This document shows positions 12,464 through 15,999 of a stretch of 38,517 nucleotides of DNA, in pieces (within the stretch, counting starts at the first letter, position 1; every line of letters begins with the position of its first letter). Under the pieces are notes generated by a model. It saw nothing but the letters and a program-made list of their open reading frames with translations, was not told the origin of the DNA and did no database searches. A program made the translations under genes and the position numbers. Location: the IMG/VR virus record IMGVR_UViG_2713897161_000001, positions 1-38,517 of that record; one strand, written 5' to 3'. This DNA comes from a virus. Its lineage: Duplodnaviria; Heunggongvirae; Uroviricota; Caudoviricetes.

Positions 12464-13112
12464 TGGCAGCAAATACCGAAATATTTGGGTAGTTGGCGAT
12501 CTGCACGGATGCTACACGAACCTGATGAAAAAACTGGAGACGATAGGATTCGACACCAAAAAAGACCTGCTTATCTCGGTTGGCGATTTGGTCGATCGCG
12601 GTACAGAGAACGTCGAATGCCTGGAATTAATCACATTCCCCTGGTTCATAGCTGTACGTGGAAACCATGAGCAAATGATGATTGATGGCTTATCAGAGTG
12701 CGGAAACGTCAATCACTGGCTGCTTAATGGCGGTAGTTGGTTCTTTAATCTCGATTACGACAAAGAAACTCTGGCTAAAGCTCTTGCCCATAAAGCAGAA
12801 GAACTTCCGTTAATCATCGAACTGGTGAGCAAAGATAAAAAATATGTCATCTGCCACGCCGATTATCCTTGTGACGAATACGAGTTTGGAAAGCCAGTTG
12901 ATCATCAGCAGGTAATCTGGAACCGCGAACGAATCAGCAACTCACAAGACGGGATCGTAAAAGAAATCAAAGGAGCGGACACGTTCATCTTTGGTCATAC
13001 GCCAGCAGTGAAACCACTCAAATTTGCCAACCAGATGTATATCGATACCGGCGCAGTGTTCTGCGGAAACCTCACATTGATTCAGGTACAGGGAGAAGGC
13101 GCGTGGGCATAA
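12441..13112 (+). CDS. Ser/Thr protein phosphatase (lambda PPase-like)
   Basis: Metallophosphatase motifs GDLHG, GDLVDRG, GNHE; sequence from [23 protein letters not shown] recalled as lambda phosphatase. Confidence 0.9.
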
Positions 13113-13621
13113 GAGAACTAAACCTCACCAAAGAACAGCATGAGTGGCTGAATGGCTGGCTTGAACTGTGGGGCGCATGGGTTTATTCAGGTCGTCTGGA
13201 AAAGCGCATGAGCAGCGTAATAGCGAAGTTCATGGAGAGCGTAGAGCCGGGAAGAGTTATGACAAGGCCAATGTGCAATGATGATGATGGAATGTTGATT
13301 TCTCAGGTCGTCGATTCCGTCATGTACATTGACAAGAAAGCCTTTGGCATCCTCCTCAGCTACTACGCTCATGGTTCATCTAAGCGAGCAATTGCATCCT
13401 ACTATCACGCGACTGCAAAGCCACGCAAGATGTGTGGACGTGGTGGCGAGGGATGGAGAAAACCTTCACTGGCAACCTGTAGAAACGAAATTGACGACAT
13501 CCTGAAAGCGTCGTTATTTGTTTTGTACCAGCCAATGCAAAATGCTTTCAAAATGCGTAAACGTGTTGAGAAAGTTAAGCATGTTGCTGTTAAAGGCCTT
13601 GACATGCAATTATCCATTTAG
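13103..13621 (+). CDS. Q: Late-gene antiterminator Q (phage 82-type family)
   Basis: 172 aa with WGAW, CNDDDGM and SYYAHG segments resembling 82-type Q as recalled; located between nin genes and a pR'-like promoter/terminator pair. Confidence 0.6.
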
Positions 13622-13628
13622 CCATAAT
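13599..13628 (+). promoter_or_regulatory. Late promoter pR' candidate
   Basis: TTGACA at 13599-13604, 18-nt spacer, CATAAT at 13623-13628; overlaps the 3' end of Q. Confidence 0.5.
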
Positions 13629-13669
13629 ATTCACATATGCTGCTGCTTTTGCATTCAGCAACCATCACA

Positions 13670-13694
13670 AGCCCACCTCCTGTGGGCTTTTTTG
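13670..13694 (+). terminator. tR'-like intrinsic terminator
   Basis: Hairpin AGCCCAC/CTCCT/GTGGGCT followed by TTTTTG, about 40 nt downstream of the putative pR' start. Confidence 0.55.
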
Positions 13695-13815
13695 CATTCG
13701 CGTGCAATCAAAACAAGAGTCTTAGTGATATGGGCCTGAGATATGGTGGTGGAAACATCGCTCCGCTCTTGGCTGTCATATCTACGCGAACAGGCTCTAT
13801 CCCTAAGGTAAAGCG

Positions 13816-14328
13816 ATGAAAGAAATAAAATTAACGCCAGAAATGGTGCTTTCTGTTGTTGATTACAATCCATCATCAGGCGACTTTCACTGGAGATGGA
13901 GGCAGGGGAGAGAGAGGACCACTTTGACATGGAACTCTCGTTTTGCTTTCAAGAAATGCTCATCAATAAATTCTGATGGGTATTTAATGATTATGATTAA
14001 TGGTAAAGCATACCCTGCTCACAGACTGGCATGGTTGATTGTTTATGGCACCATGCCCGATGGTTTTATTGATCACATCAACAGGGTAAGAACAGATAAC
14101 CGGATATCAAATCTTCGTCTTGTCACTCATTCCGAAAATATGCAAAACAGGAAAATTCAGAAGAATAATAAATCTGGATACCGTGGCGTGTCTTGGGATG
14201 CTAAGTACGGGAAATGGAGAGCAAGAATTAATGCGTCTGGAAAGTGTATTAACCTTGGATACCATGACACTGCCGAACTTGCCGCTGCGGCTTTTGAGGC
14301 AGCCAGAATGAAATATCATACCGTTTAA
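13816..14328 (+). CDS. HNH homing endonuclease with AP2-like DNA-binding domain
   Basis: 170 aa; HNH-like region (DHINRVRTDNRISNLRLVTHSEN) and AP2-like region (SGYRGVSWDAKYGKWRARI). Confidence 0.75.
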   Translation: MKEIKLTPEMVLSVVDYNPSSGDFHWRWRQGRERTTLTWNSRFAFKKCSSINSDGYLMIMINGKAYPAHRLAWLIVYGTMPDGFIDHINRVRTDNRISNLRLVTHSENMQNRKIQKNNKSGYRGVSWDAKYGKWRARINASGKCINLGYHDTAELAAAAFEAARMKYHTV

Positions 14329-14340
14329 AGATGTAAGCTG

Positions 14341-14380
14341 CCGTTAGTGACTCTTAAGTTGCAACGGTGGCTTTTTTTTA
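14341..14380 (+). terminator. Intrinsic terminator after HNH gene
   Basis: Hairpin CCGTTAG...CAACGG followed by TGGCTTTTTTTTATTT. Confidence 0.5.
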
Positions 14381-14383
14381 TTT

Positions 14384-14458
14384 GGGTCAGTCGTATAAAG
14401 GTCATTACGGAAGGCTGTTAACCTTCTTATCGTGGTTCGAGTCCACGCTGTCCCGCCA
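14384..14458 (+). tRNA. tRNA-Asn (anticodon GTT), phage-encoded
   Basis: Manual fold: acceptor GGGTCAG/CTGTCCC (one mismatch), anticodon stem GAAGG/CCTTC with loop CTGTTAA (anticodon at tRNA positions 34-36), T-arm CGTGG-TTCGAGT-CCACG, 3' GCCA. Confidence 0.6.
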
Positions 14459-14463
14459 AACAT

Positions 14464-14539
14464 GCTGGTTTAGCTCCAATGGTAGAGCGGTCGCCTTGTA
14501 AGCGAATGGGTAGCGGTTCAAGTCCGTTAACCAGCACCA
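14464..14539 (+). tRNA. tRNA-Thr (anticodon TGT), phage-encoded
   Basis: Manual fold: acceptor GCTGGTT/AACCAGC, D-arm GCTC-CAATGGTA-GAGC, anticodon loop CTTGTAA, T-arm AGCGG-TTCAAGT-CCGTT, 3' ACCA. Confidence 0.65.
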
Positions 14540-14781
14540 TAACTGAGCCGTAGCCACTGGCTATCCTGAATTCATCAGTGATAGTTATGCTGCGGCCTTT
14601 TACACATGACCTTCGTGAAAGCGGGTGGCAGGAGGTCGCGCTAACAACCTCCTGCCGTTTTGCCCGTGCATATCGGTCACGAACAAATCTGATTACTAAA
14701 CACAGTAGCCTGGATTTGTTCTATCAGTAATCGACCTTATTCCTAATTAAATAGAGCAAATCCCCTTATTGGGGGTAAGAC

Positions 14782-15105
14782 ATGAAGATGCCAGAAAAAC
14801 ATGACCTGTTGGCCGCCATTCTCGCGGCAAAGGAACAAGGCATCGGGGCAATCCTTGCGTTTGCAATGGCGTACCTTCGCGGCAGATATAATGGCGGTGC
14901 GTTTACAAAAACAGTAATCGACGCAACGATGTGCGCCATTATCGCCTGGTTCATTCGTGACCTTCTCGACTTCGCCGGACTAAGTAGCAATCTCGCTTAT
15001 ATAACGAGCGTGTTTATCGGCTACATCGGTACTGACTCGATTGGTTCGCTTATCAAACGCTTCGCTGCTAAAAAAGCCGGAGTAGAAGATGGTGGAAATC
15101 AATAA
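14782..15105 (+). CDS. S: Holin, class I (lambda S-like) with dual-start MKM motif
   Basis: 107 aa [22 protein letters not shown]... recalled as essentially lambda S. Confidence 0.9.
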
Positions 15106-15565
15106 TCAACGTAAGGCGTTCCTCGATATGCTGGCGTGGTCGGAGGGAACTGATAACGGACGTCAAAAAACCAGAAATCATGGTTATGACGTCATTGTAG
15201 GCGGAGAGCTATTCACTGATTACTCCGATCACCCTCGCAAACTTGTCACGCTAAACCCAAAACTCAAATCAACAGCCGCCGGGCGTTACCAGCTTCTTTC
15301 CCGTTGGTGGGATGCCTATCGTAAGCAGCTTGGCCTGAAAGACTTCTCTCCGAAAAGCCAGGACGCTGTGGCACTGCAACAGATTAAAGAACGTGGCGCT
15401 TTACCGATGATTGATCGCGGTGATATTCGTCAGGCAATTGACCGTTGCAGCAATATCTGGGCTTCACTTCCGGGCGCTGGTTATGGTCAGTTCGAGCATA
15501 AGGCTGACAGCCTGATTGCAAAATTCAAAGAAGCGGGCGGAACGGTCAGAGAGATTGAGGTATGA
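15089..15565 (+). CDS. R: Endolysin (lambda R-type lytic transglycosylase)
   Basis: 158 aa recalled as lambda R-like; overlaps S end. Confidence 0.9.
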
Positions 15566-15999
15566 GCAGAGTCACCGCGATTATTTCCGCTCTGGTTATC
15601 TGCATCATCGTTTGCCTGTTATGGGCTGTTAATCATTACCGTGATAACGCCATCGCCTACAAAGAGCAGCGCGACAAAGCCGCATCCATCATCGCTGACA
15701 TGCAGAAGCGTCAACGTGATGTAGCAGAACTAGACGCCAGATACACAAAGGAGCTTGCTGATGCTAACGCGACTATCGAAAGTCTCCGTGCTGATGTTTC
15801 TGCTGGGCGTAAGCGCCTGCAAGTCGCCGCCACCTGTGCAAAGTCAACGACCGGAGCCAGCAGCATGGGCGATGGAGAAAGCCCAAGACTTACAGCAGAT
15901 GCTGAACTCAATTATTACCGTCTCCGAAGTGGAATAGACAGGATAACCGCGCAGGTTAACTACCTGCAGGAGTACATCAGGACGCAATGCCTTCGATGA
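15562..15999 (+). CDS. Rz: Spanin inner-membrane subunit Rz
   Basis: N-terminal TM segment then coiled coil; position after R; embedded Rz1 frame. Confidence 0.85.
15755..15937 (+). CDS. Rz1: Spanin outer-membrane lipoprotein subunit Rz1 (embedded in Rz, +1 frame)
   Basis: 60 aa with lipobox (LGVSAC) and proline-rich segment, entirely inside Rz. Confidence 0.7.

Follow-up and report, generated by a model that had tools for sequence, protein, structure and literature searches.

A predicted phage 21-type late-gene switch with a variant leader and an HNH gene between tandem terminators in a lambdoid prophage

We analyzed a stretch of 38,517 nucleotides from a virus of the Caudoviricetes (IMG/VR record IMGVR_UViG_2713897161_000001, positions 1 to 38,517), here called the window, and concentrate on the point where the gene for the antiterminator Q ends and a late promoter, pR', is followed by an intrinsic terminator, tR'. 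An earlier note on this DNA had proposed that a compact pR'-tR' unit overlaps the end of a Q-like gene and yields a short terminated leader RNA unless Q acts. The elements at this point, in window coordinates, are as follows.

13103-13621, plus strand: gene for the Q antiterminator, 172 aa with a GTG start, Q21 family (PF06530; phmmer match to phage 21 Q).
13599-13604, plus strand: pR' -35 hexamer TTGACA, in Q codons 166-168; aligns with the annotated phage 21 pR' -35.
13608-13615, plus strand: candidate upstream subsite of the Q-binding element (QBE), QBEu, AATTATCC, with C at -21, in the register of phage 21 QBEu ATTGAGCA.
13616-13623, plus strand: candidate downstream subsite, QBEd, ATTTAGCC, with C at -13; holds the Q stop codon TAG and lies 12 nt before the pause element.
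13623-13628, plus strand: pR' -10 hexamer CATAAT, beginning on the final base of QBEd, as in phage 21.
13635, plus strand: predicted transcription start site (TSS), A at +1, 7 nt past the -10; like the TSS annotated in phage 21, it directly precedes the pause element.
13636-13641, plus strand: sigma-dependent pause element (SDPE) TATGCT, +2 to +7, in the register of phage 21 TAAGCT.
13638-13660, plus strand: small leader hairpin, +4 to +26, a tentatively predicted fold.
13650-13652, plus strand: predicted promoter-proximal pause region (T16, G17 and +18), placed from family conservation and the phage 21 pause.
13669-13693, plus strand: tR'1, promoter-proximal intrinsic terminator, +35 to +59 (stem 13669-13689, T-run 13688-13693).

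The Q protein belongs to the Q21 family. It matches Pfam PF06530 with E = 1.1e-25 (90.3 bits against a cutoff of 26), and phmmer aligns it to phage 21 Q in PDB entries 6JNX and 6P18 with E = 1.6e-92; identity to phage 21 Q is 86%. The Pfam scan of Q returned PF06530 and a weak DUF1133 match only, and PF03589, the lambda-type Q, was absent from it. PF06530 corresponds to the Q21 family; lambda-type Q (PF03589) and Q82 (PF06323) belong to separate families (PMC9388147). The switch described here works like that of lambda but is not a member of the class of cassettes with a lambda-type Q and 6S RNA. By megablast, the DNA of phage HK629 is 99.3% identical to the window over the late switch region, and the Q gene with its promoter is also found in Sf6, HK75, CUS-3, many P22-like Salmonella phages, and others.

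The promoter hexamers TTGACA and CATAAT stand 18 nt apart and match the sigma-70 consensus at 11 of 12 positions. A scan of both strands found no other site at ≥11/12 in the 38.5-kb window, and 100 dinucleotide-preserving shuffles of the window yielded a mean of 0.31 such sites each. On sequence grounds, this is a predicted sigma-70 late promoter directly after Q, just as the earlier note had described it. The overlap with the end of Q is also confirmed: the -35 hexamer falls within the open reading frame 13103-13621, the promoter spacer holds the stop codon TAG (13619-13621), two bases after which the -10 begins. In the records of Sf6 and HK75, the homologous TTGACA-N18-CATAAT carries the label pR', and a qut site and tR' are annotated after it. 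The curated phage 21 record OL657228 provides the closest template, as it annotates the -35, QBEu and QBEd, the -10, the TSS, the SDPE directly after the TSS, and then tRNA-Asn and tRNA-Thr, with the end of a terminator placed about 50 nt from the start. By its position relative to these landmarks, transcription is predicted to start at A13635.

The spacer between the two hexamers carries a putative Q-binding site, namely two tandem direct subsites of 8 bp. In the phage 21 record, QBEu is ATTGAGCA and QBEd is AATGAGCA, and the -10 begins on the final QBEd base. With A13635 taken as +1, C13614 is at -21 and C13622 at -13 in the window, and mutagenesis has established that the C:G pairs at these two positions are essential in phage 21 (Shi et al., PMC6606751). 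The likeness to phage 21 thus runs from the -35 TTGACA through the two 8-bp direct repeats in the spacer and the -10 on the last repeat base to the start A just 5' of TAnnnT at +2 to +7. Further on, the window shares with phage 21 the bases T16-G17, a short leader, and the succession of tRNA-Asn and tRNA-Thr. A 7-nt segment reads ATTCACA in the window and ATTCGCA in phage 21, and the window even carries an exact copy of the phage 21 terminator, tR'21, at 14335-14379. There are differences as well. The window repeats read TTA(T/G)CC rather than TGAGCA, the spacer is 18 rather than 17 nt, and TATGCT stands as the pause hexamer in place of TAAGCT. Past about residue 95, the window Q departs from its phage 21 counterpart (H95R and R128N are among the changes), and it has 10 additional residues. 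Beyond about +10, the promoter-proximal leader and terminator are unrelated to those of phage 21, with the T-run ending at +59 in the window and at +46 in phage 21, and an HNH gene separates the window promoter from the 21-type terminator.

The arrangement of these elements is a property of the whole family. We surveyed 32 loci (one genome per species), 80 more divergent viral loci, and phage 21, yong1, and Sf6. Of 113 Q21-family loci, drawn from many Enterobacterales, 111 have the pR'/QBE/SDPE layout. The gap between QBEd and SDPE is 12 nt in the window, in phage 21, and in 34 of the 35 loci measured first; in the enlarged set it is one base shorter in 6 of 111. Among 44 unique family leaders, T2, A3, and T7 are invariant, and G5 (42/44), T16 (38/44), and G17 (36/44) are conserved. 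The window has all of these conserved early-leader bases, and T16 and G17 are invariant in alignment A5. In the literature, the pause lies at +18 in phage 21, at +16/17 in lambda, and at +25 in phage 82 (bioRxiv 10.1101/2022.01.24.477500). The length of the leader behaves differently from this early segment. The T-run ends anywhere from +44 to +114 across the family, with a median of +69, and the unique leaders fall into four groups.

T-run end at +44-47: 15 unique leaders, phage 21 type.
T-run end at +58-59: 3 unique leaders, window type.
T-run end at +67-78: 28 unique leaders.
T-run end at +102-114: 5 unique leaders.

The leader of the window is therefore of ordinary length for the Q21 family, in which short leaders are normal, and it is longer than that of phage 21, whose T-run ends near +46. 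This bears on a further suggestion of the earlier note, that so short a leader points to a different spacing of the Q engagement site. We find no such difference. The window has the 12-nt gap of phage 21, and the engagement geometry is nearly constant in 111 loci while the T-run end ranges as given above. Because this geometry is fixed and leader length varies freely, the one cannot be read from the other; indeed, both the QBE and the +2 to +7 pause element lie upstream of whatever determines leader length. A fixed distance between QBE and pause element combined with free leader length provides independent, comparative evidence on which parts of the phage 21 structures are constrained. Most Q21-family leaders also share the motif GCCGTWNGTG..TCTTAAG after the pause element (+8 to +30 in alignment A5; for example, 2038-2060 of locus L004), and it is kept even in leaders with differing terminators. 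In most leaders other than that of the window, a weakly supported candidate inner hairpin at +15 to +30 shows 60.5% pairing against 38-52% in slid controls, in an ungapped alignment that misfits variable loops.

The tR'1 stem, which begins 40 nt downstream of the -10, has 8 pairs, 5 of them G-C, with a 5-nt loop. For the leader of 66 nt, the predicted fold has an energy of -21.5 kcal/mol with z = -4.2, and none of 200 shuffles folds as well. Eleven homologous terminators, all in two-hairpin leaders, share the frame AAGCC...GGGGC-TTTTT and differ inside the stem. Across these homologs, 96% of cells are paired and four of seven pairs have changed on both sides, whereas pairing drops to 31-61% when the partner is slid by 1-3 columns. 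An intrinsic terminator about 40 nt downstream of the -10 had been predicted in the earlier note, and the stem, the T-run, the leader fold, and the covariation within the stem all bear this out. Its position was given correctly; the end of the unit, placed at 13694, was not, as the T-run stops at 13693 and 13694 is a G. The base-by-base match to phage 21 and the Sf6 and HK75 annotations likewise support the larger proposal of a compact pR'-tR' unit with a short leader that is terminated unless Q acts. From A13635, the terminated leader is predicted to measure about 58 nt.

The small hairpin upstream of tR'1 is a more tentative element. Alone it has z = -1.76; it is identical in Hafnia phage yong1 and nearly so in an IMG/VR locus, L178, and among the three known copies a single wobble-compatible change occurs. 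A permissive Rfam scan of 13400-14800 returned only two tRNAs and a non-significant P9 match (E = 0.55). A 60-codon open reading frame at 13637-13819, whose ATG lies inside the pause hexamer, was rejected as a gene: it has no Pfam match, crosses the terminator, and is 9 codons long in yong1.

In our reading, 13599-13693 is the cassette that regulates the late genes of a lambdoid prophage of the phage 21 type (Q21 family), and we put the probability of this reading at about 0.88. The sequence elements, their register, their conservation and covariation across the family, and the mosaic structure of the locus are direct observations of this analysis. The expected behavior of the switch, from start site and pause to termination, Q binding, and read-through, is drawn by analogy from phage 21 biochemistry and structures. 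Without Q, the constitutive sigma-70 promoter pR' would initiate at about A13635. Sigma region 2 would then bind again at the -10-like TATGCT (+2 to +7), and RNA polymerase would pause near +16 to +18. On escaping, it would halt at tR'1 (T-run +54 to +59) and release the leader of about 58 nt, leaving the late genes off. With Q, two protomers would bind the direct repeats AATTATCC and ATTTAGCC and load onto the paused complex. The upstream protomer would form a ring, or nozzle, at the RNA-exit channel and block terminator hairpins, as in the exit-channel mechanism described from phage 21 structures (bioRxiv 10.1101/651190; PMC6606751). The modified polymerase would traverse tR'1, an HNH gene, and a second terminator, tR'2, and then transcribe tRNA-Asn, tRNA-Thr, and the lysis and structural genes. 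Short-leader pR'-tR' units are already known for the Q21 family and are textbook biology. What is new here is a rarer version of that known switch, with a QBE of the TTAGCC class, a yong1-type leader, and an HNH gene between tandem terminators.

Several points weigh against this reading. Every functional step for this particular allele is argued from homology. The two subsites are not identical, as AATTATCC differs from the downstream subsite at base 6, and the pR' spacer is 18 nt against the usual 17 of the Q21 family. The leader shared by the window, yong1, and L178 lacks the family motif GCCGTWNGTG..TCTTAAG (+8 to about +30) save C9, T16, and G17, so that the contribution of this motif may be absent here or otherwise supplied. 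The terminator tR'2 lies downstream of tR'1 and before the lysis genes, and tR'1 is for this reason not strictly needed to keep those genes off. Finally, in the GenBank record of the 99.3% identical HK629, the hairpin bears no label but that of a rho-independent terminator, and a "putative pR'" is annotated about 90 nt downstream of it. As for the spacer, the extra base characterizes the sub-lineage of the window (13599-13628, compared with 1996-2024 of locus L004 for the 17-nt form), and since it sits between the -35 and QBEu, the distance from QBE to pause element is unchanged.

The residue/base covariation across the Q21 family is the most interesting by-product of the analysis. In the cryo-EM structure of phage 21 Q, the base-contacting residues are H95, A124, R127, and R128 (Shi et al., PMC6606751). 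We compared these residues with the QBEd bases in 37 non-redundant protein/site combinations, which are distinct combinations and not independent evolutionary events. The counts are these.

Q R128: QBEd base 4 is G in 26/26.
Q N128: QBEd base 4 is T in 10/10.
Q R124: QBEd base 5 is G in 5/5.
Q with any residue but R at 124: QBEd base 5 is A in 32/32.
Q R95: QBEd base 8 is C in 15/16.
Q with H, Y, or L at 95: QBEd base 8 is A in 21/21.

The sole locus with Q at residue 127 is also the sole locus without C at base 7, and all four combinations of the residue-95 and residue-128 states are present among the Q21 loci. These patterns suggest a simple code for each 8-bp subsite. Residue 128 may read base 4 (R reading G, N reading T), residue 124 may read base 5 (R reading G, any other residue reading A), residue 95 may read base 8 (R reading C; H, Y, or L reading A), and the invariant R127 may read the invariant C at base 7. 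At least five QBE classes occur, TGAGCA, TGAGCC, TTAGCC, TTAGCA, and TGGACA (family loci L087-L198 and window 13608-13623). The window Q has R95, A124, R127, and N128, for which the rules predict T4, A5, and C8, and QBEd ATTTAGCC agrees. Because QBEd fits the bases predicted by covariation, we read AATTATCC and ATTTAGCC as the binding site of this Q; the window may then be placed in the common class R95/A124/N128 with TTAGCC, a class predicted by sequence. On balance, we consider it somewhat more probable than its negation that such a code splits the Q21 family into mutually orthogonal specificity classes. That the bases covary with exactly the four residues seen to contact them suggests orthogonal Q/QBE pairs and makes the code testable. 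If true, the family would offer both a natural collection of antiterminator/promoter pairs that do not cross-react, ready for use, and a natural experiment on the co-divergence of a regulator and its site.

The way in which the window departs from phage 21 Q is relevant to how such pairs might be inherited. Residues 1-102 of the window Q are those of phage 21 Q save one (R95 for H95), and divergence lies beyond. At the DNA level, 13103-13372 matches phage 21 at about 98% identity and the sequence beyond it at 55-80%, a drop that makes the DNA-reading helices and their site one adjacent diverged block:

13375-13628, plus strand: block diverged from phage 21, with the Q DNA-reading helices (H5-loop-H6) and the promoter-embedded Q-binding element, defined by the drop in DNA identity.

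Since the codons for the reading helices and the site they read fit into about 250 bp, the pair would recombine as one linked unit. The last four Q codons are encoded by the two Q-binding subsites, with the stop TAG inside QBEd ATTTAGCC; in this lineage, the Q gene is 10 codons longer than that of phage 21, and as a result it extends into its own promoter. The leader follows a different pattern. The same leader type follows Qs of three DNA-specificity classes, in the window, in yong1, and in L178, where it stands behind a third QBE class, TGAGCC. The leader and terminator past the -10 may thus form a separate, freely exchangeable module, one leader type serving three specificity classes. We found no description of QBE specificity classes or of the window leader type in the literature searched, of which our coverage was partial.

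Everything between the -10 and a second, phage 21-type terminator appears as an insertion when the window is set beside its closest relatives. The features downstream of the -10 are the following.

13629-14332, plus strand: cassette of about 704 nt with the yong1-type leader, tR'1, and the HNH gene, in place of the 6-7 nt that otherwise separate the -10 from the resident pause element.
13816-14328, plus strand: HNH-AP2 endonuclease gene, 170 aa, of the free-standing homing-endonuclease type, between the two terminators.
14334-14339, plus strand: promoterless phage 21-type pause hexamer TAAGCT, identical to phage 21.
14335-14379, plus strand: tR'2, phage 21-type terminator (stem 14335-14373, T-run 14372-14379).
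14384-14458, plus strand: tRNA-Asn, first gene of the late transcript, as in phage 21 and Sf6.
14464-14539, plus strand: tRNA-Thr, a late-transcript gene, as in phage 21 and Sf6.
14782-15105, plus strand: lysis gene S (holin, PF05106), predicted to be Q-dependent; HK629 annotates the same gene.
15089-15565, plus strand: lysis gene R, predicted to be Q-dependent; HK629 annotates the same gene.
15562-15999, plus strand: lysis gene Rz, predicted to be Q-dependent; HK629 annotates the same gene.

Sf6, HK75, and CUS-3 carry a Q allele 98-99% identical to that of the window and a TTAGCC-class promoter that is the same through the last -10 base; their downstream 21-type terminator is also the same, as are the tRNAs in Sf6. 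In these phages, however, the -10 runs into TAGAAGG-TAAGCT and the 21-type terminator, while the window has its 704 or so nucleotides inserted there. Homology to Sf6/HK75-type loci stops exactly at 13628, the last -10 base. The shorter arrangement predominates: among 5426 complete E. coli genomes, 379 have the Q end and promoter, and only 40 of those have the window's continuation (339 do not). Of 80 viral loci that share the window's Q allele, about 66 pass directly from the -10 into a phage 21-type leader. The window leader is present in 13 loci of the full searched set, including HK629 and PhiR12_1. EPEC E2348/69 has the same cassette arrangement (NC_011601, 2612197-2613422), and the PhiR12 phages have a truncated version of it.

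The HNH gene matches PF13392 (E = 2.1e-18) and the AP2 domain PF00847 (E = 1.6e-8), and tblastn finds relatives in 3783 phage records, many of them annotated as homing endonucleases. The HNH and AP2 domains, together with presence/absence polymorphism at a conserved intergenic site, are those of a putative free-standing HNH homing endonuclease. Past this gene, TAAGCT and tR'2 are identical to phage 21 from +2 to +39, an exact copy about 700 nt downstream of the pR' start. The tR'2 hairpin folds at -20.2 kcal/mol with z = -4.7, and no promoter at ≥9/12 was found ahead of this second copy of pause element and terminator. The earlier note had overlooked both the HNH gene and this second tR': tR'1 is not the sole terminator before the late genes, and intrinsic terminators occur twice, as tR'1 and tR'2, both upstream of the tRNAs and of S-R-Rz.

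The presence of two terminators raises an alternative in which pR' is genuine but tR'1 arrived with the HNH cassette and serves to silence the endonuclease, so that the Q-controlled late decision is made at tR'2. The latter is intact, forms the stronger hairpin (followed by 8 T's), and corresponds to the tR' of phage 21 that has been used in experiments. Moreover, of 13 variant-leader loci, 12 carry tR'1 and the HNH gene together at unchanged element spacing, and the five loci compared at the right junction are identical there. It is also a reasonable inference that tR'1 makes expression of the HNH gene Q-dependent, because a gene inserted between a constitutive pR' and its tR' would otherwise be transcribed in lysogens. 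Hafnia phage yong1 speaks against this alternative. Its leader is identical to that of the window from -6 to +25, with the same two-hairpin fold and a homologous terminator (AGCCCAC...GTGGGCT, then T's and GCATT), but it stands behind a phage 21-class TGAGCA site with a Y95/R128 Q, with no HNH gene, no second terminator, and a holin gene about 100 nt on. In the interval from pR' to this holin gene, no hairpin with a T-run was noticed other than the tR'1 homolog. Because that homolog stands alone, without an HNH gene, we take tR'1 to be a tR' in its own right. In addition, a polymerase stopped at tR'1 never arrives at tR'2, which makes tR'1 the first decision point whatever its origin. We therefore hold a decision made at tR'2 to be unlikely, and note that it is largely compatible with a cassette regulated at tR'1 rather than exclusive of it. 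Placed between two tandem tR' terminators, the HNH gene should be expressed in a strictly Q-dependent manner, which makes the locus a natural two-terminator test case and the tandem tR'1/tR'2 a system for studying processive read-through of two different terminators.

A second possibility concerns the fate of the leader, which might also act in trans as an Hfq-binding small RNA in the manner of StxS. In lysogens of Stx phages, pR' likewise gives rise constitutively to a short RNA that terminates at tR', as is predicted for the window leader. StxS comes from a 258-nt leader that is processed by RNase E to 74 nt, and its Hfq binding and targets have been demonstrated; short pR' RNAs have also been reported for phages 21, phi80, 82, and P22 (PMC7547250). 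The window leader would end in a hairpin and U-run, the usual 3' module for Hfq binding, and its first 27 nucleotides are the same in E. coli and Hafnia phages while the linker differs. Yet the leader matches no Rfam family, and the conservation of +1 to +17 is already accounted for by the pause module. We regard such a role for the constitutive leader of about 58 nt as improbable, and it would add to the part played in antitermination, not replace it.

Far less probable is the arrangement implied by GenBank for HK629 (JQ182735), in which the hairpin at 13669-13693 merely ends Q or an early transcript and the true late promoter lies near 13781-13786, ahead of the HNH gene. That record does mark the homologous hairpin as a rho-independent terminator, and it sets a "putative late promoter pR'" at its positions 42745-42750, which correspond to window 13781-13786. 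In the window, however, the hexamer there reads TCTACG, and no promoter-like site at ≥9/12 is present. The position lies inside a cassette that is missing from most phages with the same Q, and because it is within this optional segment it cannot be the family's late promoter. It has neither Q-binding repeats nor a pause element, whereas 13599-13641 has all of these in the phage 21 register, and Sf6 and HK75 place pR' at the homologous TTGACA-N18-CATAAT. We reject this candidate for its lack of a consensus match and its place in an optional cassette. Positions 2080-2195 of our HK629 locus (L001) correspond to window 13671-13786; the pR' label there conflicts with the assignment by homology and looks like a mis-annotation. 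Given that the pR'-tR' unit is textbook biology, the practical value of our reading is mainly corrective: the nearly identical HK629 record misplaces pR', and RefSeq has the region unannotated in strains such as EPEC E2348/69.

That a promoter and a hairpin with a T-run are adjacent by chance and functionless, as might be supposed from the abundance of terminator-like patterns here (7 found against 3.5 expected in 3.5 kb), has next to no probability and is for practical purposes refuted by the comparative data, given the uniqueness of the promoter site in the window, the architecture kept in 111 of 113 relatives with protein/DNA covariation, and the covarying tR'1 stem.

The reading of 13599-13693 as a Q21-type late switch also places it relative to lambda. 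The lambda 6S RNA is 194 nt long, and the lambda leader is much longer than that of the window; lambda Q, moreover, is of the unrelated family PF03589. In both systems, a constitutive late promoter lies just after Q and yields a terminated leader, and antitermination is processive and proceeds through an exit-channel nozzle, as predicted for the window. Both also have a QBE between the -35 and the -10 and a -10-like element in the first transcribed bases, with the pause at +16/17 in lambda and at +18 in phage 21 (PMC6606751; bioRxiv 10.1101/2022.01.24.477500). Lambda Q binds as a monomer to a site without repeats and needs NusA (PMC9388147).

One further observation concerns the opposite strand of the Q gene. 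At 13415-13428, minus strand, lies GCAAAGCCACGCAA (TTGC-N6-TTGC on that strand), at the place where the phage 21 record annotates a CII-binding site. In that record, the site belongs to the antisense promoter paQ inside Q.

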